Assembly: GCA_046754105.1 (NCBI GenBank) | Contig: JBHHVD010000003.1 | Span: 2,707 to 66,706, forward strand | Length of the DNA stretch: 64,000 nt | Reading direction: 5' to 3' | Source: Candidatus Krumholzibacteriia bacterium | GTDB lineage: Bacteria; Krumholzibacteriota; Krumholzibacteriia; WVZY01 | Part shown: in pieces, positions 3,912-64,000 of the stretch | Numbering within the stretch: position 1 is the stretch's first letter | Layout: every line of letters begins with the position of its first letter | Made by a program: the position numbers and the translations under genes | Notes under the pieces: model-generated | Database searches by the model: none | Told to the model about the DNA's origin: nothing | The model's input: only the letters and a program-made list of their open reading frames with translations

Positions 3912-6900
3912 CTACTTGACGTGTACCAACTTGCCTCGAAACGTGGACTGCTGGCCGCCCTGGTTGACATTAATGACGAAGAGATAAACACCGTTCGCAA
4001 TCTCATCGCCGTTGAACGTGCGGCCGTCCCAGGCGACGGCGTTCTGCCCGACCGCCCGGGCGCTCGGCGGTATCTGTAGCTTTGCGATCCGACGGCCCCT
4101 GGTCGTAAAAATATCGATCGTGCCGCCGGAGATCGCCACCTCGGCCGTGTACACGAACTGCGTCCGGTCGCTGAACGGATTGGGATAGGCAACGACATCG
4201 AGTACCCCCAACCGTGACGAGACCACGATCTGATAATCGAAACTGGCGTTGTCGATGAATACGGAGAGCGTATGCGGCCCCTGCGGCAGATCCGCAGAGA
4301 ATGCGACGAGCCACGTGGAATCCCCCCGTGCCGGCTGCGTTACGTTGGCGGGGACGGCGGTGCCGTCGATTTTGACCCGGATGAGAGACGTATCGAGGGC
4401 GACGGGCGACGTCAGCTCGAAGACGTAGTCCGCCCTGGGCGGCACCACGTCACCGCTCACCAGCGGGCGGCCGCCGGCCTTGAGGACGACGCCCAGGTCG
4501 ACCTTGAGCACGAACTCTCCGGTCATCAGGAAATTGGTTCCCGTCGTGTCCACCGCCTGATGGGCGCGCAGGATGATGTCGTACTCGCCCGGCACGATCT
4601 TCGTCCGGAAGGTCACCTCGTACTGGCGGGCGGCGTCCAGCCCCTGGTCGACCAGCGGCGTGACGGTTAACTGGTTCGATGCGTCCACGCCCGCGATATC
4701 CAGCGTGATGTCCTCGATCGCCACCTCGTCGGTGATGATCGCCCGCACGGCGACGGAATCGCTGGCCCCGATCGTGGTGAGCGACGAGCCTGACTGCACC
4801 GGATTGCCGTCTACCGTCACCTCGAACCGCGGCGGCCCGGCGTCGATACGCAGCAGCGGGTCACCCAGGATATGGTAACGGAGGATCATTCCCACCGCGC
4901 CCTTGCCCGGACCCGAACTTCCCCGCCTGGAGAGGTTCACGAGCTCCGCGTCGGTCATGATCTCGCCGAAGATCCAGCGCGCCTGCGAGCGGCCGCTCGC
5001 CAGGTCGGGATCGGTCCGCGGATTCTCGTAGAACTGCTTCGCGATGATATCGGTGTACATCTCGTTCGTGCTGAGGTACTCGAAGCCCGTGCTGCCGTAG
5101 GTGCTCACCGCACCTCTGTTTTCCAGAAGGAGCAGCAGCTCGGAGAGGCTATCGCCGTTGGGGCCGTTGTTGGCAAATCGATTGCGTTCCCGGTGAACCG
5201 CATAATCGCTCAGGTGGCACCCCATTCCAAACAGGAGGTAGGGGCGGCCGACGTTGAAGCCCCGCGGATTCAGGTAGTCGGGTGTCTCGCCGAGGTTCAC
5301 CGTGCTCGTGAAGAGAAACTCGTGGCAGATCGCGTACCGGTTCATGTGCGCCTGGAAACTGACGATGGTGGCGCCCCTGGCAAGCTCGTCGAGCAGCGCT
5401 GGAACGGCGTTGCTGCGCGTGTCCTGCTGCTGGACAAAGGGCGACACACACGTCCCCACGGGTGGGTGCTGGATACGGTTCGACAGGAAGAAACGCACCA
5501 CGTCGAAGCCGTTGGGTATCGAGTTCTCCGTCGTCACCGCCGCCGCCTGCTCGGCCCTTTCGAAACCGGCTTCCGCGGGCTGGTTGCACGTGATGGAGAG
5601 GGACTGGAACGACCACGCGTCATCGGCGATTCGGATCATACGCCGCCGCCAGAAATCGCCCGCCGCCGGCCTTTCGAAGGCGAGGATCTTATCGATCATG
5701 CGGCGTATTTCGGTGTCGTTGCCCGCGGGGAGCCTGCCGACGATGAGGCTGGGAATGAAATTCAGGGGGTTTGCCCCGCTGACCGGCGGCTGGTTCTTGA
5801 TGAAATCGTGGTCGAGCATCACGTACCACTTGTCCGAAGTGACGACTTCGTCCTCGTTGAAACCGGCACCGACGAACTCTGTGAACGACTCGGTCGGGAC
5901 GAAATTAACTCCCGACTGGCCGACGTGCACGCCCTTGTTGTCCTCGCTGGCGTCCCCGACCAGCACCACGAAACTGGCGTTCCCCTTCTCGAAGAAGTGG
6001 CGCACGAAGCGGCGAATGGCCCGGGGATGATTCACGCCTCCGTTGAACTCGTCGAAGATCTCCTCCACGTCCGCCATCAGCACCCGGTACCCCTGCGCCT
6101 TGCGGTAGTCGACCCATCGCTGCATGCGCCCGAGGTAATTCTTGTGGGACACCACGACGACGTCCACGCCGGCCTCGGCCGGGTTGCCGATCAGGCCGCT
6201 CGGCACGTCCGCGATGACGTCGCCCCCCGTTATCTCTTTGATCTTGTCCAGCGGCGTTGCGATGTAGCGTCTCTGGGAAGACAGTGTTTCCCGAAACGAC
6301 AGCACCTGGCCGCCGCCGGCCGGCGTGAAGTGACCCGCGGTGAGCTGGCAATCCAGCGGCGCCAGGGGATCGGTTATGTCGAAGAGCATCACGTCGGTAC
6401 GACTGAGCCCTGTCACGACGAGGCTCGTGTCGCCGGCGAGCGCGGCGGAGTGGAAATCCAGCACGTTGCCCTTTGCGCGGTATGGCGAGCGGTACTCGAC
6501 ATCGAACCAGTTGAGGAGCACGTCGAGGGACGATACCTGGTTACCGGGGTTCGGTTCGATACGGAAGGTGTTGATGCCCTCGACCAGGGCGCTTGCCGGT
6601 ATCAGCCCCGAATCGTAGTCCACCAGGCTGTTCGTGGGCACGGAAACGCTGTTCAGGACCGTGGTCCCTCGGGTGTTGATAATCTTGAGGTCGATGCCGC
6701 GCGTACTAATCTGCAGGTTGGCGCCCAGGAAGCGGGCCTTGAGCCGAAACTGGCTGCCGCCTCGGACCGCATCGAGCGAGAATGGCGCTGAGAAGGACTG
6801 CAGAAACTCGCCGTGGTAGTAGTAGAAATCCCGTTCGAAAGGCGGCGTTTTCTCGCGGAACCAGAGGTCCTTTTCGAAATGCCCGGTGACGGGGAACGAT

Positions 6901-8072
6901 GCCGCGGTCGTGTCTCCGGACACGAATCCGGGCGCTACACTCTTCGGACTCATGCGCGGGCCGGCGGAGGCACCGAGCCAGTAGATATTGTCGTCCGTGA
7001 ACTTCTGGATCGGGTCGTCCTGTAGCGTGTCCTCGCGAAGCGCCTGCCCGTAGAAGATCACGTAGTCGCTGCCGTCGAACTCACCCGCTGTGCCGGCGGG
7101 ATCCTCGGCCACCTTGTAGCCCACGTCGACGATACGCTCGGCCAGGCCCACGTCATCGTAGGCTCTCTTGAACAGGTGCAGATCCCCCGTGGCCGTCCCG
7201 GCAGGGAATCCCCCGGCGATGGCGGACGCCGCGCTCACCCGGTGCATGCGGCTCTCTCTGACCCGCAGCTTGACCACGGGCCCGGCGATCGCCCGCGCGC
7301 TTCGCGCCGATCGGCTGCTGCCCTCGAACCGCGACGGGGCGGCCCGCCAGCCCCTGCCCTGGGCCGGATTGACCACCATCTTCGAGAGAATGCGGTCCCA
7401 GACCGCCGACTCCGGCACCGGCCGCAGCACTTCCCCCCGCCCTCTCCCCGTGCGTGTTTCAAACGTCACTTCCACCCGTATCACCGTGGCCACGACGGTC
7501 TCTCCCGTCGCAGGATCGTACGCCACGGGATCCAGCCGCAGGGACAGCACCCGCTGGTGCCGCACGCGGCCGACCCCGGCGTCGGCAACACGGATCGTGT
7601 AGCCCCGCCTCCGGTAGATCGCGTCATCGATGGAATACGTCTCGGAGGTGGTGACAAAGTCATTCCCGTCTCGTACCGACACCGGGGACGGCACCGGCTC
7701 GAGCACGTGGGCGCCCAGGGGCTCGGAGCGCACGACCGTGTGGCGGATCGAGTAGCCTCCGCGGGGCGGCAGCGCCACCAGGAAGTAGCGACCGGGCAGG
7801 CGCGGCTCGCCTTCTCCGGAGAGGGTGCCCCAATCCGGTATCTCCAGCCGTTCGGTCCCCGCCAGGAACGGCGACGCCTCGAAACGGGCCCCGTCCGCCG
7901 TCACCTCGAACACCAGGCGCGACTGACTCGACGAGACCACCTGGACGGCGGCCGTTGCGGGCGTCACGAGGGCGGCGGCCAGGTACAACAGGGTGCAGCC
8001 AACCGCCAGGGATGCGCACAGCCCGCGGGGTGGCGAAACGACAAGACCGCGCATAAAAAGAGGACCTCCCAA
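3912..8072 (-). CDS. Secreted peptidase C25 (gingipain-like) family protein with C-terminal T9SS type-A sorting domain
   Basis: 1386 aa with an N-terminal signal peptide. The region VVVSHKNYLGRMQRWVDYRKAQGYRVLMADVEEIFDEFNGG matches the start of the C25 catalytic domain. A candidate clan-CD Cys lies in LLFGMGCHLSDY. The C-terminus YPNPFSDRTQFVY...WDGRTFNGDEIANGVYLFVI matches Por_Secre_tail / FlgD-Ig-like. Confidence 0.6.
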   Translation of the reverse strand: MGGPLFMRGLVVSPPRGLCASLAVGCTLLYLAAALVTPATAAVQVVSSSQSRLVFEVTADGARFEASPFLAGTERLEIPDWGTLSGEGEPRLPGRYFLVALPPRGGYSIRHTVVRSEPLGAHVLEPVPSPVSVRDGNDFVTTSETYSIDDAIYRRRGYTIRVADAGVGRVRHQRVLSLRLDPVAYDPATGETVVATVIRVEVTFETRTGRGRGEVLRPVPESAVWDRILSKMVVNPAQGRGWRAAPSRFEGSSRSARSARAIAGPVVKLRVRESRMHRVSAASAIAGGFPAGTATGDLHLFKRAYDDVGLAERIVDVGYKVAEDPAGTAGEFDGSDYVIFYGQALREDTLQDDPIQKFTDDNIYWLGASAGPRMSPKSVAPGFVSGDTTAASFPVTGHFEKDLWFREKTPPFERDFYYYHGEFLQSFSAPFSLDAVRGGSQFRLKARFLGANLQISTRGIDLKIINTRGTTVLNSVSVPTNSLVDYDSGLIPASALVEGINTFRIEPNPGNQVSSLDVLLNWFDVEYRSPYRAKGNVLDFHSAALAGDTSLVVTGLSRTDVMLFDITDPLAPLDCQLTAGHFTPAGGGQVLSFRETLSSQRRYIATPLDKIKEITGGDVIADVPSGLIGNPAEAGVDVVVVSHKNYLGRMQRWVDYRKAQGYRVLMADVEEIFDEFNGGVNHPRAIRRFVRHFFEKGNASFVVLVGDASEDNKGVHVGQSGVNFVPTESFTEFVGAGFNEDEVVTSDKWYVMLDHDFIKNQPPVSGANPLNFIPSLIVGRLPAGNDTEIRRMIDKILAFERPAAGDFWRRRMIRIADDAWSFQSLSITCNQPAEAGFERAEQAAAVTTENSIPNGFDVVRFFLSNRIQHPPVGTCVSPFVQQQDTRSNAVPALLDELARGATIVSFQAHMNRYAICHEFLFTSTVNLGETPDYLNPRGFNVGRPYLLFGMGCHLSDYAVHRERNRFANNGPNGDSLSELLLLLENRGAVSTYGSTGFEYLSTNEMYTDIIAKQFYENPRTDPDLASGRSQARWIFGEIMTDAELVNLSRRGSSGPGKGAVGMILRYHILGDPLLRIDAGPPRFEVTVDGNPVQSGSSLTTIGASDSVAVRAIITDEVAIEDITLDIAGVDASNQLTVTPLVDQGLDAARQYEVTFRTKIVPGEYDIILRAHQAVDTTGTNFLMTGEFVLKVDLGVVLKAGGRPLVSGDVVPPRADYVFELTSPVALDTSLIRVKIDGTAVPANVTQPARGDSTWLVAFSADLPQGPHTLSVFIDNASFDYQIVVSSRLGVLDVVAYPNPFSDRTQFVYTAEVAISGGTIDIFTTRGRRIAKLQIPPSARAVGQNAVAWDGRTFNGDEIANGVYLFVINVNQGGQQSTFRGKLVHVK

Positions 8073-8305: not shown

Positions 8306-8863
8306 CTATTCGGTGCCCGAATACAGTGACTTGATGACGCCCCACGTCGTTTCCTCGACCGGAACCGAGCAGGGGCACGATCCGTCGTCATTGATGCGTC
8401 CGCTGTGGCTCGGCACACCGGTCAAGAGGTTATTGCCACAATCCACGACCTCGATCGTGCCGGAGGGCACACTCGGGTCTCCAGTGATCGGGTACACGCA
8501 GCACGCCGGGGTCCCGCCGCCGAAGGTCACAATCGACAGCACGTGAATCGGTGCGGTCAGGCACTGGCCGTACCCGATGGCCACGCCAGTCTGCGAGCCG
8601 CCGACCGTCACGGGAAACTGCGTCTGGTCCGAGAGAAACGTTACCGTGGCACAGGCGGGCAGGGTCGCCTTGAACTGGATCGCCGTCGCGCCGGTTGTGC
8701 TCACGTGTACGAAGTTCCACGTGTTGGTCGGCAAACCCCCGTCGACCAGGTTGCAGTCCAGGCCACCCGGATCCATAAATATACTGATCACCCCTGCGGC
8801 TTGGCCGAACGCCACCGTCGCCGACAGCATGAGCACGACAGTCAGTAGCAATGTTTTCTTCAT
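8306..8863 (-). CDS. Small secreted Cys-rich protein, subfamily A of the TTWG-x-[VI]KSLY C-terminal-motif family
   Basis: Start chosen at MKKTLLLTVVLMLSATVAFG (signal peptide) with AAGGAG 6 nt upstream. About 8 Cys. C-terminus CSVPVEETTWGVIKSLYSGTE. Paralogous to 10121..10681 and 33426..33983. Confidence 0.7.
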   Translation of the reverse strand: MKKTLLLTVVLMLSATVAFGQAAGVISIFMDPGGLDCNLVDGGLPTNTWNFVHVSTTGATAIQFKATLPACATVTFLSDQTQFPVTVGGSQTGVAIGYGQCLTAPIHVLSIVTFGGGTPACCVYPITGDPSVPSGTIEVVDCGNNLLTGVPSHSGRINDDGSCPCSVPVEETTWGVIKSLYSGTE

Positions 8864-9182: not shown

Positions 9183-9737
9183 CTACGGCGCCGCGGTATA
9201 GAGTGCCTTGACCCGTCCCCAGGTCGTGTCCTCGACGGGAACGGTGGCGCAAATCAGCCCTGTCATGCCGATGGCGTTGATGAACTGGTTCGTGGGCCAC
9301 TGGGTGGCTCGGACGGCCCCGAAAATCGGATGAGGGCTTACCACCACCGGCGTATCCGTGACCGAGCAGCCGCTGCAGTTCCAGGTGAACAGGATCGTGT
9401 AGGCTCTGAACTTGCCAAAGACGTTCTGGGGCAGCGACCAGCCCATGGAAATACCCGTGGGCGAGGTACCGAAGGTCACCGGTGGCGTACCGGCGTCGGC
9501 CACCCACGTCATCGTCACGGGAAACGTGACAGCCAGCTCCAGACCCGAGATCAAGTCGTTGAACTGCTGAGCAACCACGAACATCGAATCCAGCCCACCG
9601 GCGGGTGGGCAATTCTTGCTTTCCGCAGTCAGCGCCGTGTCGAAATAGAGCCTCACTGTCGGCGTTTGCGCCTGGGACAGGCCCACGCAAACGGCGAGTA
9701 GCAGCAGTGCTGCCAGCGTCGATCGAAATATCCGCAT
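9183..9737 (-). CDS. Small secreted Cys-rich protein, subfamily B of the TTWG-x-VK[SA]LY C-terminal-motif family
   Basis: Start at MRIFRSTLAALLLLAVCVGLSQA (signal peptide) with a GGTGA-type RBS. Body motif TWVADAGTPPVTFGTSPTGISMGWSLPQN. C-terminus CATVPVEDTTWGRVKALYTAAP. Confidence 0.7.
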   Translation of the reverse strand: MRIFRSTLAALLLLAVCVGLSQAQTPTVRLYFDTALTAESKNCPPAGGLDSMFVVAQQFNDLISGLELAVTFPVTMTWVADAGTPPVTFGTSPTGISMGWSLPQNVFGKFRAYTILFTWNCSGCSVTDTPVVVSPHPIFGAVRATQWPTNQFINAIGMTGLICATVPVEDTTWGRVKALYTAAP

Positions 9738-10120: not shown

Positions 10121-10681
10121 CTATTCGTACAGCGATTTCACCTGGCCCCAGGTGCTCTCTTCCACCGGGATCAGGTTACAGTCACAGTTCTGCGGCGTGC
10201 CGTTGACCGTATTCGTCCGGCCGGCGCCGATGAGCAGGTTGTTCGCACAATCGACAACTTCGACCTCGCCCGACGGAACGTTCGGATCCGCATCTACGAC
10301 AAACGCGCAGCAGAGCGGCGTCGAGCCACTGGCGAAGTAGTTGATCGTCAGAACGTGGTTTGGCGAGGCAACACACGTACCGTAGCCGATCGCCACGCCG
10401 GTCTGCGAGTTGCCGACCGTCACCGCATAGACCGCCGTATCGGACAGGTAAACCGCACCCGTCGTGCTCATACAAAGTGGGGTCTGCGCCCGAAACTGCG
10501 ACGCGCTCGCGCCCGGCGAAAGTGTATGCACCACGAAGATGCTCAGCAATCCCGGCGCAGCATCTACGACGTTACAATCCGCCGCGCCCGGGTCGCCGTA
10601 GGTGCCGATGACACCTGCCTGTCCAAACGCGAGACTCGCGCCGAACAGCATGACTGTTGTCAGCAATATCACCTTTTTCAT
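10121..10681 (-). CDS. Small secreted Cys-rich protein, subfamily A of the C-terminal-motif family
   Basis: Start at MKKVILLTTVMLFGASLAFG with AAGGAG 6 nt upstream. Shares with 8306 and 33426 the motifs DPG(G)ADCN, SQTGVAIGYGTC and PNHVLTINYF. C-terminus CNLIPVEESTWGQVKSLYE. Confidence 0.7.
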   Translation of the reverse strand: MKKVILLTTVMLFGASLAFGQAGVIGTYGDPGAADCNVVDAAPGLLSIFVVHTLSPGASASQFRAQTPLCMSTTGAVYLSDTAVYAVTVGNSQTGVAIGYGTCVASPNHVLTINYFASGSTPLCCAFVVDADPNVPSGEVEVVDCANNLLIGAGRTNTVNGTPQNCDCNLIPVEESTWGQVKSLYE

Positions 10682-11031: not shown

Positions 11032-11634
11032 TTACTGCGAATACAACGACTTAACCCTGCCCCACGTGGTTTCTTCCGCTGGCACCGCCGGACAAATCAG
11101 CGCTGTCAAACCGACGGCCTGAAATGTCTGGGGGATATTGAAACACGTGTACTGCGGGTTCGTCGGGTTGAACAACGGGTGTCCTGAAACCACTACCGGC
11201 ACACCCATTGCCGTACAGTCGGTACAGATCCACTGGACGAGGACCGTTGCGATGTTGATCGCAGAAAACCCATTCTGCGGAAGCGCCCAGCCCATCGACA
11301 TGCCCGTGGGCGTAGTGCCGAAGGTCACCGGCTGCGTGTCGAGGTCGGCGACCCAGGTCAGACACGCCGAATAGTCAACCTGCACCTCAACGCCCGTTAC
11401 GAAACAGTCAAAGTTGTACGCGACGATGTAGACGCTATCGATCTGCCCAAAAACGCCGGGAGGAATGATGGTCTCCGTCGTCCCGTCGCCTATGATCGGC
11501 GGGCCCGCGGGCGGCGGGTCCCAAGATGCCCTATCGAAGAAAACTCCAACGTAAGGAGTCTGCGCGCTCGCAACAGACGCTCCGACCACAACCAGCGCCA
11601 CAAGCGCGATGACAAACACTTTTACATTCATCAT
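11032..11634 (-). CDS. Small secreted Cys-rich protein, subfamily B of the C-terminal-motif family
   Basis: Start at MMNVKVFVIALVALVVVGASVASA with AAGGAG 7 nt upstream. Body motif TWVADLDTQPVTFGTTPTGMSMGWALPQNGF. C-terminus CPAVPAEETTWGRVKSLYSQ. Confidence 0.7.
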   Translation of the reverse strand: MMNVKVFVIALVALVVVGASVASAQTPYVGVFFDRASWDPPPAGPPIIGDGTTETIIPPGVFGQIDSVYIVAYNFDCFVTGVEVQVDYSACLTWVADLDTQPVTFGTTPTGMSMGWALPQNGFSAINIATVLVQWICTDCTAMGVPVVVSGHPLFNPTNPQYTCFNIPQTFQAVGLTALICPAVPAEETTWGRVKSLYSQ

Positions 11635-11870: not shown

Positions 11871-12428
11871 CTATTCGCTATAAAGCGACTTAACCCTTCC
11901 CCACGTCGTGTCCTCCACCGGCACGGTGCGGCATACGAGCGCCGTCAAGCCAATGGCGGGATGCAACGTGATCGTGGGCCATTGCGTGAACTGCGGCGTG
12001 GGTGCACCGCTGAACGGATGCTGGACAACCTGGATCGGATCGTCCGGCACCGCACAGTTGCCACAGTTCCACTGGATGAGCGCTTTCGACACAAAGATCG
12101 GGGAGAACCCGTTCTGTGGTAGCGCCCAGCCCATCGACATGCCCGTGGGCGTAGTGCCGATGGTCACCGGTTGCGTCTCCAGGTCGGCGACCCAAGACAT
12201 GGACGCCGGGTAGTTCACCTTGAACTCAATACCGACAACGTTCGTATTGAAGTTGTAGGCGATGAAAAACAGGGAATCTACCAGGCCCACGCCCGGACAG
12301 TTCTTCTGTTCCGGGGTGCCGACTCTGTTGAAGAAGACCCCGATGTAGGGTTGTTGCGCACTCGCCACGGACGCGCCGACCAGGGTCAGCGCCACGAGCG
12401 CGAAGATCAATGTTCTTGCAATTCTCAT
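11871..12428 (-). CDS. Small secreted Cys-rich protein, subfamily B of the C-terminal-motif family
   Basis: MRIARTLIFALVALTLVGASVASA signal peptide. The AAGGAG RBS and about 50 nt of 5' leader are conserved with gene 11032..11634. Body motif TWVADLETQPVTIGTTPTGMSMGWALPQNGF. C-terminus CRTVPVEDTTWGRVKSLYSE. Confidence 0.75.
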   Translation of the reverse strand: MRIARTLIFALVALTLVGASVASAQQPYIGVFFNRVGTPEQKNCPGVGLVDSLFFIAYNFNTNVVGIEFKVNYPASMSWVADLETQPVTIGTTPTGMSMGWALPQNGFSPIFVSKALIQWNCGNCAVPDDPIQVVQHPFSGAPTPQFTQWPTITLHPAIGLTALVCRTVPVEDTTWGRVKSLYSE

Positions 12429-12515: not shown

Positions 12516-13211
12516 TTAGTTACACTTGTGTCCCGGAGGCCCAAAGTGAAACGCGAACCGGCTGAGATCCTGCAGGTTCACGAGTCCATTGATGTCAAAA
12601 TCCGCACAAGTGTCAAACGGCTGCGGCGGGAAAGCAGCGGCAAAGAGCGAAAGGTCGACGAGGTTGACCTCGTTGGTGCCGTCGATGTCCGGGCTGCGAA
12701 CGTTTACCCCGAGGCATTTGGCCGCGGTGCAGCTCACCAGGGGATCCTGGAGCGCGAAACCCTGAACAACGACCGATACACCATCAGCGCAGCCACCACC
12801 GGTGAGCCCACCAAGGCCACCCATGGTCGTCGTGCCCGAAGCGTTCGTCAGCGAATCGGCACCCGAAGAAGCCGAACCGCCACAGAGAACCGCGTCGTTC
12901 AGCGGATCGCAGTCGACGAGCCAGAAATCGGCGCCGGGAATGTTCGGAATCGGCGTCGAGTTCGATTCCAGCACGGTGACACTGATGATAAAACCGATAC
13001 CAGAAGCGAGTCCACCAACCTGATCGTCAAAGGTGTCCGTATCGCCCTGCGGACAAACGAACAACGGGAACGGAGGTCCCGACGCGCCGCCCGTGGCAAT
13101 CAGAGTACAGTTCGAAACGCAAGGATCGATGATCCCCGCGAAGGCTATCCCGTGTATCATTAGCAGCGATGCCGCAAGTAGACAGAGAACAGCCAGCTTA
13201 CCTTTAAACAT
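12516..13211 (-). CDS. Secreted Cys/Gly-rich protein with two C-terminal dockerin-like (EF-hand-like) calcium-binding repeats
   Basis: Start at MFKGKLAVLCLLAASLLMIHGIAFAG with a GGAGGTG RBS. The repeats DIDGTNEVNLVDLSLFAAAF and DFDINGLVNLQDLSRFAFHFG fit the dockerin type-I pattern D-x-[DN]-x-[DN]-G-x-[VI]-N-x-x-D-x-x-x-[LF]. Confidence 0.55.
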   Translation of the reverse strand: MFKGKLAVLCLLAASLLMIHGIAFAGIIDPCVSNCTLIATGGASGPPFPLFVCPQGDTDTFDDQVGGLASGIGFIISVTVLESNSTPIPNIPGADFWLVDCDPLNDAVLCGGSASSGADSLTNASGTTTMGGLGGLTGGGCADGVSVVVQGFALQDPLVSCTAAKCLGVNVRSPDIDGTNEVNLVDLSLFAAAFPPQPFDTCADFDINGLVNLQDLSRFAFHFGPPGHKCN

Positions 13212-13520
13212 TCGTACACCTCCAAAAAGTTTGGATGCACTTGCACACAGGTGCAGACCACCTGTTACGGGAAAGAAGCTCAGGGGTAGGTATCTCTTCC
13301 TTCCACCAGAGGCATTTTGCACGCCTTACTCGACAGCTGTAGATGTTATCACAGGAATCGGGCCCTTGTCAACACCCAAATCGGCGTCGCCAAGCGGATT
13401 ACGGCCCCCCGTCCTCCTCGAATCCGGGCGGCCGGGCCGCCCTCGGGGGGAACGGCGTCGCCCGGGGATTTGCGGTGTATTGCCCGAGAACGGCACCCCG
13501 ACGGAGGGACGGGCGGGGAA

Positions 13521-13819: not shown

Positions 13820-14638
13820 TCAATCGCTTCCTCGATTTCCCGCGGCACTCCGCTTTTCTATAGCGTCATTCAGCCGCCCGCTGCGCAGGCCGTCGCGCTC
13901 GAGCGTTACCCGCCGGAAGCCGATCCGGACCAGACTCGAGACGACTCGCGCCCACGTGTCCTCTCCCAGCAGCCGGTCGTGATCCTGCGCGGGCACTTCA
14001 ACCCGGGCGGCATCTCCGTGGTGGCGCACGCGGCACGTCCGGAACCCAAGATCTTTGAGGATGTTCTCGGACCGTTCGACCTGCCGGAGCTTTTCCGCCG
14101 TGACCCGCTCGAAGTACGGAATCCGTGACGCGAGACACGGCGCCGCCGGTTTGTCCCACAGCGACAGCCCCAGTGCCTCGGCGATCGCTCGCACCCGGCG
14201 CTTGTCGAGTCCGGCTTCGACGAGCGGGGTGACAACGCCCCGCTCCTCCGCCGCCCGCGCCCCCGGCCGGTAGTCCCCGAGATCGTCCAGGTTGGCGCCG
14301 TAGGCGATACGCGCAAGACCCCGGTCTCTCGCCACCTCGTGCAAACTCTCGAACAACTCCGCCTTGCAAAAGTAACACCGGTCGGGGTCGTTTCGCCGGT
14401 ACCGCTCGTCGGCCATCTCGCGCGTCGTGACCTGGACGCACGCAATGCCGTGCCGCGCGACGAACTCCAGCGCCGCGCGCTTCTCGCGTCCCGGCAGCGA
14501 CGCGGAAACGGCGATTGCGGACAGCGCGCCGCCGCCCAGCACGTCGTTCGCCACGTAGGCAAGCAACCCGGAATCCACGCCGCCCGAGTACGCCACCAGC
14601 ACGGAGCGATACCGATCGAGCACACGCCGCAGTGCCAT
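13820..14638 (-). CDS. PP-loop ATP pyrophosphatase family protein (TIGR00268 / LarE-like ATP-dependent sulfur transferase)
   Basis: SGGVDS PP-loop about 20 aa after the chosen start MALRRVLDRYRSVLVAYSGGVDS. Conserved CYFCK and a C-terminal Cys region. Confidence 0.7.
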   Translation of the reverse strand: MALRRVLDRYRSVLVAYSGGVDSGLLAYVANDVLGGGALSAIAVSASLPGREKRAALEFVARHGIACVQVTTREMADERYRRNDPDRCYFCKAELFESLHEVARDRGLARIAYGANLDDLGDYRPGARAAEERGVVTPLVEAGLDKRRVRAIAEALGLSLWDKPAAPCLASRIPYFERVTAEKLRQVERSENILKDLGFRTCRVRHHGDAARVEVPAQDHDRLLGEDTWARVVSSLVRIGFRRVTLERDGLRSGRLNDAIEKRSAAGNRGSD

Positions 14639-14807
14639 GTACTGCTTGTCGAGTTGTGGCGACAATCCCGTGCTCGTTTCCACGTTGCGTCCCTTGGTCA
14701 CGCGTACGATCGGTAGAGCCCGGCTGCGGGCCTCCGGTTTTCTCTCCGCTTCCCCGCCGCGGCTCCCCTGCGCCGCCCTCGCGACAGAAATCTCGCGGGA
14801 CACGCCA

Positions 14808-32680: not shown

Positions 32681-33253
32681 CTAACCCCCTGCCGGCGGTT
32701 TCAGGAGGCGGTCGATCAGAGACACCGCCTGCGCCGGCTCGATCGAAAACCCGTTGAACTGCACGTATCCGTTGCGATCGATGATAATCGCCCACGGGGT
32801 TCCGCCGGCGCGGTAGCGCTTCATGACGATGGAGCCGGTGCCGTTATTACCGGCGTCGTGGCCGACCGGGATGTCCAGGTTGAACTGATCGGCGGTCGAC
32901 TTCGCCTTTTGGGCCGTATTGACCTGGTATCCTTCGAAGACGGTTTGTATGGCGACGAAGACCACGTCCTCGTCGTCGGCGTAGTGTTCCGCAACCGACC
33001 GCAGGGTCGGAAACCCGTGCGAATGGCACCCGGGGCACCACGCCTGGAAGCCGAACAGGTAGACGATTTTTCCTTCGAAATCGGAAACGTCGATGCGCTC
33101 TACGCCCTCGCCGAGGTTGTACCAGTCGGCCACGCCCCAACGAGGCGCCTTCTGACCCAGGATTCCGTACGAATGATGTTGCGATATCGAGATCTGCGGC
33201 ATGGCGGTCACCAGCGTCACCAGGGCAGCGGTCACAATCGGTCGTCGCGGCAT
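32681..33253 (-). CDS. Thioredoxin-fold thiol-disulfide oxidoreductase (redoxin/TlpA-like), membrane-anchored or secreted
   Basis: 190 aa with an N-terminal hydrophobic segment and a WCPGC active site. Confidence 0.75.
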   Translation of the reverse strand: MPRRPIVTAALVTLVTAMPQISISQHHSYGILGQKAPRWGVADWYNLGEGVERIDVSDFEGKIVYLFGFQAWCPGCHSHGFPTLRSVAEHYADDEDVVFVAIQTVFEGYQVNTAQKAKSTADQFNLDIPVGHDAGNNGTGSIVMKRYRAGGTPWAIIIDRNGYVQFNGFSIEPAQAVSLIDRLLKPPAGG

Positions 33254-33425: not shown

Positions 33426-33983
33426 ATGAAGAGATTGCTATTTGTGTCGCTGATACTCGTCGTGGTTCCCGCCGTGGTTTTCGCGCAGGCGGGACAGATC
33501 GGTCTGTTCGCCGACCCCGGCGGCGCCGACTGCAACCTTATGGACACGAGCCCGGGTCCGATCACGGTTTACGTGGTGTTGATCGATCACGGGGGCGCCG
33601 GTGCCTGCGACTTCTCGGTCCGGCCCGGTCCCGGTTTCAATGCCTCTTTCGTCTCGGATACCCCCGTGGTGGGTACAATCTTCGGCACCTCCCAAACGGG
33701 CGTTTCGATCATCCTGGGTGCCTGCCTTACCGAACCCACGCATGTCCTGACGATCAACTACAACGGGTTCGGCGTGTCGTCGACCTGCAGCTCACTCGAT
33801 ATCGGGGACAACGTCAATGTCACACCTCCATCCCCGTCGATCACGACGTGTGTCGGCGCCAAGAACCTGGTGCCCGGCAAGTCGATGTTCGTAAACCCCG
33901 ATGCGTCGTGCACGTGCGCGGTGCCCGTCGAACAAACCACCTGGGGACACATCAAGTCGCTGTATTCCGGCAACCAGCCGTGA
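33426..33983 (+). CDS. Small secreted Cys-rich protein, subfamily A of the C-terminal-motif family (dispersed sixth member)
   Basis: MKRLLFVSLILVVVPAVVFAQAG signal peptide. Motifs DPGGADCN, SQTGVSIILGAC and THVLTINY. C-terminus CAVPVEQTTWGHIKSLYSGNQP. Confidence 0.7.
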   Translation: MKRLLFVSLILVVVPAVVFAQAGQIGLFADPGGADCNLMDTSPGPITVYVVLIDHGGAGACDFSVRPGPGFNASFVSDTPVVGTIFGTSQTGVSIILGACLTEPTHVLTINYNGFGVSSTCSSLDIGDNVNVTPPSPSITTCVGAKNLVPGKSMFVNPDASCTCAVPVEQTTWGHIKSLYSGNQP

Positions 33984-63653: not shown

Positions 63654-64000
63654 TCACTTCAGGATGACCATTTTGCGAGTGCCCGTGCCTCCGACTCCCA
63701 TGAGCCGGTAGAAATAAACGCCGCTCGACACCGAACGACCCGCAGTATCCCGACCGTCCCATTCAGCGCGGTGGGTCCCCGCATCACGCTCCCCCTGGTC
63801 TAGCCGCGTGACCAGCGCTCCCGATGCGTCGAAGATCTCGATCGAGACCATCGCTTTGGCGCTCACCGTGTACTCGATCGTCGTCTGCGGGTTGAACGGA
63901 TTCGGGAAGTTCTGGGATAGCGCCGCCGCCAGTCGGGAAACCGTCACGGTTGCCACGGGAGACCGGAACTCGTCTCCACTCGCAGTGCGAATCACAAGCT
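63654..64000 (-). CDS. C-terminal part of a secreted protein ending in a T9SS type-A sorting domain (partial, continues beyond window)
   Basis: FPNPFNPQTTIEYTV...IEIFDASGALVTRL...WDGRDTAGRSVSSGVYFYRL matches Por_Secre_tail. The listed M start is internal; the frame stays open to the window end. Confidence 0.6.
   Translation of the reverse strand, partial: LVIRTASGDEFRSPVATVTVSRLAAALSQNFPNPFNPQTTIEYTVSAKAMVSIEIFDASGALVTRLDQGERDAGTHRAEWDGRDTAGRSVSSGVYFYRLMGVGGTGTRKMVILK

Follow-up and report, generated by a model that had tools for sequence, protein, structure and literature searches.

A divergent dockerin-type module and its candidate cohesin-fold partners in a Candidatus Krumholzibacteriia genome

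In a 64,000-nucleotide stretch of contig JBHHVD010000003.1 from a Candidatus Krumholzibacteriia bacterium (assembly GCA_046754105.1; the whole stretch is hereafter the window), the gene at positions 12516-13211 encodes a secreted protein of 231 amino acids (aa) whose C-terminal module is, on the basis of sequence comparison, a divergent member of the dockerin superfamily. This gene lies directly upstream of five tandem paralogous genes on the same strand, coding for 184-200 aa each, whose products are predicted by structural modelling to have the cohesin fold. The paralog array is, on this prediction, a candidate set of cohesin partners for the dockerin protein, and the locus probably encodes an unrecognised non-cellulosomal docking system. 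Cohesin-dockerin pairs are among the tightest protein-protein interactions known and are well understood in the cellulosomes of Gram-positive bacteria; to our knowledge, the non-cellulosomal relatives of both modules are mostly without known partner or function.

The dockerin module and its carrier protein

A first-pass annotation of the sequence had proposed a secreted Gly/Cys-rich protein with two segments, each a calcium loop followed by a helix, in its C-terminal 60 aa, and had considered this pair dockerin-like. The signal peptide and the composition of the protein bore out the former, and the two segments were located as DIDGTNEVNLVDLSLFAAAF (residues 175-194, nt 12689-12630) and DFDINGLVNLQDLSRFAFHFG (residues 204-224, nt 12602-12540). 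A regular expression for the 12-residue loop, found four places in all six frames of the 64-kb window; two of these, 29 residues apart, lie in this open reading frame (ORF), and no further dockerin module was found in the window by regular expression or profile. Both loops were kept in 112 of the 112 homologues examined, and their spacing was 29 residues in 95 of the 112. Asp occupied positions 1 and 12 of either loop in all 112 sequences. The other ligand positions of loop 1 were N50/D35/T16/S10 (position 3), D74/S25/N12/T1 (position 5) and N44/D35/T13/S10 (position 9), and those of loop 2 were D67/N39 (position 3), N48/D41/S23 (position 5) and N68/D19 (position 9); the Asp/Asn ligand positions are, then, kept in the orthologues. 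Position 8 was Val or Ile, and L-[SA]-x-F-A followed each loop. In an alignment of 43 members, D175, D186, D204, D215 and six cysteines were invariant.

Pfam Dockerin_1 (gathering score 22.9 bits) did not match the full-length window protein at E <= 10, and neither Dockerin_1 nor an EF-hand family matched its isolated 60-aa module at the same limit. The sole single-sequence hit, to SMK1 (E 0.49), was dismissed as spurious. The C-terminal modules of two homologues exceeded the Dockerin_1 cut-off, with 23.3 and 24.5 bits, and in a member-by-member scan (n = 43) Dockerin_1 was detected in 14 sequences (best E 4e-4) and EF-hand families in six (EF-hand_5), the EF-hand models scoring below their own cut-offs and below Dockerin_1. 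The Pfam comparison suggested by the first-pass annotation thus gave no match for the window sequence alone and a positive result for its relatives.

At family level the dockerin assignment holds. A profile of 56 homologous C-terminal modules (A2), compared with PDB sequences, matched best the dockerin 2y3n_B of Bacteroides cellulosolvens (E 3e-5, both repeats aligned); its 29 matches at E <= 10 were mostly dockerins of types I, II and III and included six EF-hand proteins. Searched against 1.84 billion representative proteins, A2 gave 5546 matches at E <= 1e-3 and 302 at E <= 1e-10. The top matches outside the family, P0141, P0142, P0143 and P0167 (E 1e-21 to 1e-31), carry 4-8 Pfam Dockerin_1 domains each (97-232 bits), and the best A2 stretches in P0141-P0143 are those that score best with Pfam Dockerin_1 (in P0142, 52-108 versus 53-97, a single domain of 36 bits). 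The window copy itself lies below the detection limit of the curated model. As a separate observation, the metagenomic proteins P0140-P0143 and P0167 are unusual in consisting almost wholly of tandem dockerin modules, with 18 matched stretches in P0140 (2148 aa) and eight Pfam Dockerin_1 domains in P0141 (917 aa).

In the AlphaFold2 model of the whole protein (pLDDT 92.5, pTM 0.83), the helices that follow the two loops (Table 1), together with a short turn at residues 201-203, correspond to the three-helix pattern of dockerins. A strand (167-172) precedes loop 1, and before loop 2 there is the three-residue turn alone. The repeats are therefore modelled as F-hands and not as classical EF-hands, because a beta strand, not a helix, enters loop 1; the model does not fit a canonical EF-hand pair, neither loop having an entering helix. 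The plan agrees with that of Pfam PF00404 Dockerin_1, namely two 12-residue loops D-x-[DN]-x-[DNS]-...-[ND]-x-x-D with a helix after each, but recognition positions 10-11 are Leu and a variable residue, not Ser-Thr, and in loop 1 position 4 is Gly and position 6 is Leu, where Dockerin_1 has Gly at 6. In the A2 alignments, 2y3n_B and 2b59_B have inter-repeat linkers ~4 residues longer than that of the family, and the C-terminal H-F-G-P-P-G-H-x-C tail, near-invariant in the family, has no counterpart in the aligned dockerins.

The N-terminal part of the mature protein is a Cys-rich immunoglobulin (Ig)-like domain. Top Foldseek matches were Big_1-type Ig domains of FdeC, InvD, invasin and intimin and macroglobulin (MG) domains (E ~0.01), and the homologue P0145 scores above the Pfam cut-off for Big_1 in the corresponding region. 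Matches to this domain dominated the Foldseek search with the whole protein; the sole match containing a dockerin was the X-module-dockerin (XDoc) of CipB, 5m0y_B (rank 4, E 0.036, template modelling (TM) score 0.2-0.3). A full-length family profile spans the X module and the type II dockerin of CipA (2b59_B, E 0.011). Among 118 homologues, C141 and C202 were lost together in five sequences, and C49 and C207 were gained and lost together. This co-variation of interdomain cysteines suggests disulfides stapling the Ig domain to the dockerin, which appears to be held in the manner of an X-module-dockerin pair; the pTM of the model and the co-varying pairs likewise suggest that the one domain may pack against the other.

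The ORF runs on the minus strand from an ATG at 13211, with GGAGG (Shine-Dalgarno) 7-8 nt 5' of it, to a stop at 12516-12518, and NCBI record ACE5EO_00855 is the identical protein, labelled hypothetical. A longer GTG start at 13322, which gives the longest mechanical ORF, was ruled out because the homologues all begin at the MFKGKLAV position (ATG). G26-I27-x-D29-P30-C31 is near-invariant right after the predicted cleavage site, and AlphaFold2 puts a helix at residues 3-23 within the signal peptide. The mature protein is acidic, with 13.2% Gly, 4.9% Cys (10 Cys), 9.3% Asp and 1% each of Lys and Arg. Lipoprotein status was ruled out (no lipobox), as was that of cargo of the type IX secretion system (T9SS), no T9SS C-terminal domain being present. 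The 163 homologues found at E <= 1e-3 are all full length (~205-250 aa), and none bears a precomputed Pfam domain.

The paralog array and its conserved neighbourhood

Each paralog consists of a signal peptide ending in near-invariant Ala-Gln, a beta-rich body and a conserved C-terminal tail. The signal peptides are of the ordinary signal peptidase I type, not of the lipoprotein type, and the mature proteins have ~160 aa and a single domain. At least 169 relatives were found by profile search, all single-domain and of ~180-200 aa, and those with an organism name come from Krumholzibacteria or 'Latescibacterota' metagenome-assembled genomes (MAGs). Of 48 members, at least 90% begin their mature chain with Gln (Q25 of the paralog at 11871-12428; nt 12354-12356), and this N-terminal Gln after signal peptidase cleavage suggests pyroglutamate in the mature paralogs. 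Intrinsic terminators in the array were no more numerous than in shuffled sequence.

The subfamily A paralog at 11871-12428 was modelled with AlphaFold2 (pLDDT 85.7, pTM 0.74, about nine to ten strands), and the fold evidence is that of this one predicted model. Foldseek against PDB returned 28 matches at E <= 1e-3, of which 23 were cohesin chains, four integrin alpha-V and one a CLIPPER adhesin domain, and cohesins made up 34 of the top 50 matches, covering types I, II and III and non-cellulosomal ones. Target-normalised TM scores were 0.5-0.69, the highest (0.69) with Clostridium perfringens 2jh2_C; Archaeoglobus fulgidus 2xdh was also matched. By sequence, the paralogs matched no family of NCBIfam or Pfam; weak OMP_b-brl matches (E 0.009-0.015) were dismissed since they cover the signal peptide region. 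The first-pass annotation had seen no cohesin-like partner in the window, which remains correct as far as sequence is concerned (no Pfam Cohesin match) and is contradicted by the predicted fold of the modelled paralog.

The tail, E-[ED]-[ST]-T-W-G-x-[VI]-K-x-L-Y, occupies the last 12-15 residues of all six paralogs of the window, with W, G and K near-invariant. It is the most conserved element of the family (3.36 bits per column versus 1.8-2.8 for the strands), followed by predicted strands 5 and 6 (residues 88-105). The conservation of these two strands is the sole, indirect pointer to dockerin binding through the 8-3-6-5 sheet. AlphaFold2 models it as a short amphipathic helix of low confidence, not as a strand. 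It is unlike known sorting signals, having no transmembrane segment and no T9SS C-terminal domain, and is an obvious candidate for anchoring or sorting.

In all non-redundant loci with downstream sequence, 1-6 cohesin-like genes come immediately after the dockerin gene. The recurring order is LarE-like gene, dockerin gene, 1-6 cohesin-like genes, C25 peptidase, SIS and SBP genes (L002, L003, L005, L007 and L008, the loci with enough flanking sequence), and the dockerin gene is followed by cohesin-like genes also in L010, L011, L014, L017 and L019, which are shorter or less fully read; L011 also has a long ORF after a C25-propeptide-like start, and L019 shares its upstream genes with other loci. 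Relatives only 46-50% identical are included, as is one MAG labelled Chitinivibrionia. The number of paralogs per locus varies (1, 2, 4, 5 or 6), and the dockerin and C25 genes are single. One locus, L001, had no adjacent paralog by motif scan; this apparent exception was overturned by the profile search and dissolved because a tail-less cohesin-like ORF lies directly downstream, found by profile alone (E 2e-31).

A second dockerin copy in genome CP070631 (L021) stands in another neighbourhood, with a two-component system and T9SS cargo. A cohesin-like remnant lies just upstream of this gene and four cohesin-like copies lie 7 kb downstream, a context that adds some independence to the linkage evidence. 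Short remnant ORFs were observed by the CP070631 dockerin genes (L001, 9412-9612, plus strand; L021, 9551-9841, plus strand). One of them encodes part of a second dockerin module (A2, E 3e-10), and the other is a 77-aa piece ending in a cohesin-like tail, matched by the profile of the cohesin-like paralog family (A4, E 1e-5); they look like decayed duplicates.

In related loci that reach far enough, the C25 gene terminates the dockerin/cohesin-like cluster. Its product in the window matches Pfam Peptidase_C25 (E 1.6e-52) and also has a Propeptide_C25 domain. The best NCBIfam match was the T9SS sortase PorU (NF033707; 193.5 bits, E 4e-57, model positions 5-771 of 1095); this score is under the curated cut-off of 420 bits, and so the protein is called PorU-like, equivalence to PorU not being established. 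The T9SS-type C-terminal domain of the C25 protein is sub-threshold (FlgD_ig 24.9 versus 27 bits, TIGR04183 20.8 versus 23).

A further connection with the T9SS comes from relatives of the dockerin protein. P0145 (741 aa) contains four tandem [Ig + dockerin + HxC] units and then a T9SS C-terminal domain, and from these tandem copies the Ig + dockerin unit behaves as a mobile cassette. P0211 and P0239 (~800 aa) have one such module each; of the two, P0211 was scanned and has a T9SS C-terminal domain after it. In P0168 (362 aa) the C-terminal two thirds match the Ig + dockerin unit, with an extra N-terminal region ahead. Since P0145 and P0211 carry the T9SS C-terminal domain, this dockerin subtype is used by proteins destined for the T9SS surface. 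The window breaks off within a gene (63654-63995, minus strand) that clearly codes for a T9SS type A sorting domain at its C-terminus (TIGR04183, E 1.2e-10, NPFNP motif), which confirms the use of T9SS-type cargo by the organism.

Coordinates of all features are given in Table 1. Among the neighbouring genes, tRNA-Val is located at 13596-13521, with the promoter-like site just downstream, and a LarE homologue (TIGR00268, E 2.3e-90; ATP-dependent sacrificial sulfur transferase) at 13820-14803 on the minus strand, upstream of tRNA-Val; in Pfam the latter has a weak NAD_synthase match alone. The unlinked sixth paralog divergently adjoins a secreted AhpC/TSA-redoxin/thioredoxin-like protein (32681-33253, minus strand), a neighbour that may be relevant to disulfide-rich partners.

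Table 1. Features of the dockerin locus and of related genes in the window.
Feature	Position	Strand	Basis
Dockerin-protein gene, 231 aa, Ig-like domain + dockerin module, secreted	12516..13211	minus	locus tag ACE5EO_00855
Signal peptide, residues 1-25, signal peptidase I site AFA|G (predicted)	13137..13211	minus	homologue alignment, AlphaFold2
Cys-rich Big_1-like Ig beta-sandwich, residues 26-171, X-module-like role	12699..13136	minus	AlphaFold2, Foldseek, profile
Dockerin-type module, residues 172-231: two F-hand repeats + H-F-G-P-P-G-H-x-C tail	12519..12698	minus	profiles, alignment
Ca-binding loop 1, residues 175-186 (DIDGTNEVNLVD), then helix 184-191	12654..12689	minus	AlphaFold2, alignment
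Ca-binding loop 2, residues 204-215 (DFDINGLVNLQD), then helix 213-220	12567..12602	minus	AlphaFold2, alignment
Paralog 1, 185 aa, subfamily A: signal peptide, beta-sandwich, C-terminal EDTTWGRVKSLY tail	11871..12428	minus	AlphaFold2, Foldseek
Paralog 2, 200 aa, subfamily A, cohesin-like	11032..11634	minus	family profile, E 4e-65
Paralog 3, 186 aa, subfamily B, cohesin-like	10121..10681	minus	family profile
Paralog 4, 184 aa, subfamily A, cohesin-like	9183..9737	minus	family profile
Paralog 5, 185 aa, subfamily B, cohesin-like	8306..8863	minus	family profile
Paralog 6, 185 aa, subfamily B, unlinked, cohesin-like	33426..33983	plus	family profile
PorU-like C25 peptidase, ~1380 aa: C25 propeptide, C25 peptidase domain, T9SS-type C-terminal domain (sub-threshold)	3912..8054	minus	Pfam, NCBIfam
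Sigma-70-like promoter candidate, TTGACA-18 nt-TAACAT with TG	13343..13372	minus	10/12 consensus positions, consensus match alone

Docking model and alternative explanations

The explanation that we favour, with moderate confidence, is calcium-dependent cohesin-dockerin docking between the dockerin protein and the paralogs in the cell envelope. According to this model, a two-domain protein exported by the Sec pathway would consist of a disulfide-rich Big_1-type Ig domain and a compact dockerin, the latter made of two calcium-binding F-hand repeats 29 residues apart and closed by the His/Cys tail. The calcium-loaded dockerin, carried on a rigid Ig stalk, would dock to at least one free-standing cohesin-like paralog, the two helices after the calcium loops binding the flat face of one or several paralogs, and small protein-protein complexes would form in the diderm cell envelope. 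The face V-[ND]-L-x-D-L-[SA]-x-F-A is kept in either repeat, so the module may, by analogy with type I dockerins, have a dual binding mode. The conserved PorU-like neighbour and the Ig + dockerin cassette in T9SS cargo of relatives suggest that the docking complexes belong to a cell surface served by the T9SS. The first-pass annotation had supposed that the protein anchors or organises the neighbouring secreted family; the predicted cohesin-like fold of the neighbours strengthens the idea that the dockerin protein organises, or is organised by, this family, with binding and surface location to be read as parts of the model.

Several observations weigh against docking. The cohesin likeness of the paralogs is at the level of the fold only, from one predicted model, the Foldseek E-values are moderate (~1e-4), and integrin thigh/calf domains and the CLIPPER adhesin domain also match that model. 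Pfam Cohesin was found in 0/23 paralog-family members at E <= 10, and the paralog family profile had no match among PDB sequences at E <= 10. As to the dockerin protein, the window sequence taken singly gave no useful Pfam, NCBIfam or PDB match, and its Thr at position 5 of loop 1 is unique among the 112 homologues. All loci belong to one lineage with extended synteny (SpoIIE-RuvX-YceG-LarE ... SIS-SBP), and for this reason adjacency alone is only moderate evidence. Finally, the dockerin protein and the paralogs have neither a T9SS C-terminal domain (TIGR04183, Por_Secre_tail, FlgD_ig) nor a lipobox, and both partners could therefore stay in the diderm periplasm.

Some of these points would be accommodated if the repeat pair were a structural calcium site in an Ig protein, or docked elsewhere (to T9SS cargo, the PorU-like protease or a polysaccharide), the paralogs being generic beta-sandwiches, unrelated or co-regulated. 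The missing sequence match of the paralogs to cohesins and the confinement of the adjacency to one syntenic lineage agree with it, and no partner is known for many dockerin-like modules outside cellulosomes (Peer et al. 2009, as far as cited in PMC8542988). EF-hand proteins were also matched by the profile (e.g., 2jnx_A, E 0.002), but dockerins outnumber and outscore them in every search, and loop 1 is entered from strand 167-172, as in an F-hand and not in a canonical EF-hand. Moreover, the fold matches of the paralog are dominated by cohesins specifically, and the linkage persists in the different genomic context of L021. This explanation is considered rather unlikely. A motif pair that looks dockerin-like by chance, or an ORF that is no real gene, would fit the absence of a single-sequence database match, but both are effectively refuted by the 163 full-length homologues, the motif positions invariant in 112 homologues, the confident AlphaFold2 model, the Shine-Dalgarno sequence and the promoter-like site.

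A further alternative is a surface fibre, pilus or layer built of polymerised paralogs. The TTWGxVKSLY tail would be their donor or sorting element and the C25 peptidase their processing enzyme, much as gingipains process type V pili or PorU processes T9SS cargo, and the dockerin protein would serve as tip, anchor or adaptor. The high conservation of the tail, the variable paralog number (1-6) beside single dockerin and C25 genes and the best match of the C25 protein to PorU speak for such an assembly. However, the paralogs, with ~160 aa, a single domain and signal peptidase I signals, are unlike the two-domain type V pilins with lipoprotein signals, the tail is modelled as a low-confidence helix instead of a strand and is linked to the peptidase by proximity alone, and the top 50 Foldseek matches hold one pilin for the dockerin protein (rank 24) and none for the paralog. 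We regard a fibre as quite improbable.

Beyond plain calcium-dependent docking, the locus may be read, more speculatively and with a probability that we put low, as a lineage-specific T9SS surface-attachment module, not a mini-cellulosome. The paralog tail E-E-T-T-W-G-x-V-K-S-L-Y would then be a new short C-terminal sorting or anchoring signal, recognised by the PorU-like sortase or by the envelope itself, and the placed paralogs would act as interchangeable sockets into which dockerin-bearing proteins plug non-covalently, these being the Ig-dockerin adaptor and, in relatives, T9SS cargo such as P0145 and P0211. If true, it would represent a second, cohesin-dockerin-based way of decorating the diderm surface beside covalent attachment to anionic lipopolysaccharide (A-LPS).

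Relation to known systems and significance

Outside cellulosomes, modules resembling cohesins and dockerins occur in every domain of life (Peer et al. 2009, as cited in PMC8542988). Among them, the toxin-complex modules of C. perfringens NagH/NagJ (2ozn/2jnk dockerin, 2jh2 cohesin-like) and the A. fulgidus cohesin 2xdh likewise serve purposes other than cellulose degradation. The likeness to NagH/NagJ includes the best target-normalised TM score of the paralog model (2jh2_C), the match of 2jnk_A by the dockerin profile and, in both systems, a pair of calcium loops whose positions 1 and 12 are Asp. Unlike in NagH/NagJ, the cohesin-like modules of the window are not domains of large enzymes but free-standing proteins of ~160 aa, encoded in tandem and with a conserved tail; the protein bearing the dockerin lacks a catalytic domain, the host is a diderm bacterium from the Fibrobacterota-Chlorobiota-Bacteroidota (FCB) group and no cohesin signal is detectable at sequence level.

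X-module-dockerin dyads with type II/III dockerins (C. thermocellum CipA XDoc; 2b59_B, 3kcp, 5m0y_B) share with the window protein an Ig-like module immediately N-terminal of the dockerin and apparently rigidly fixed to it, and the profile spans both modules (E 0.011), with 5m0y_B at Foldseek rank 4. They differ in that the coupling in the window protein seems covalent, through the co-varying interdomain cysteines, that its Ig domain is Big_1/invasin-like, that its inter-repeat linker is shorter (by ~4 residues) and that it ends in the HFGPPGHxC tail; the structural match to 5m0y_B is weak (TM 0.2-0.3).

In Cloacimonadota, an FCB phylum, Ca. Stygibacter has been inferred to possess a cellulosome-like system whose scaffoldin is T9SS-anchored (PMC8542988). 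It resembles the present locus in its FCB-group diderm host and its secreted dockerin-bearing proteins, which include a C25 gingipain-like peptidase, and its cohesins are tied to the cell surface via a T9SS C-terminal domain (PMC8542988). That system relies on a 3755-aa scaffoldin with tandem Pfam-detectable cohesins and carbohydrate-binding modules (CBMs) and on dockerins carried by enzymes (PMC8542988), whereas the window holds no scaffoldin, CBM or enzyme-borne dockerin, its cohesin-like units are separate genes and its C25 protein lacks a dockerin. In a literature search, no mention was found of dockerins with Krumholzibacteriota, nor of dockerins and cohesins with Latescibacteria.

New with respect to these systems are a dockerin subfamily and a cohesin-fold family not annotated by current models, one adaptor gene with an array of single-module genes in place of a scaffoldin, the conserved paralog tail and the constant association with a PorU-like gene. 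Both families have carried 'hypothetical' annotation only, with no Pfam assignment, and they form a candidate pair across the uncultured lineage Krumholzibacteriota, with one dockerin gene by 1-6 cohesin-fold genes. As the putative cohesin partners were invisible to sequence models and were found by fold, censuses of 'orphan' dockerins may have missed partners. With one dockerin against six candidate cohesins, the system is small and could supply orthogonal docking modules for protein engineering. That a PorU-like sortase accompanies it is a hint that the system may help to organise the cell surface in diderm bacteria of the FCB group.

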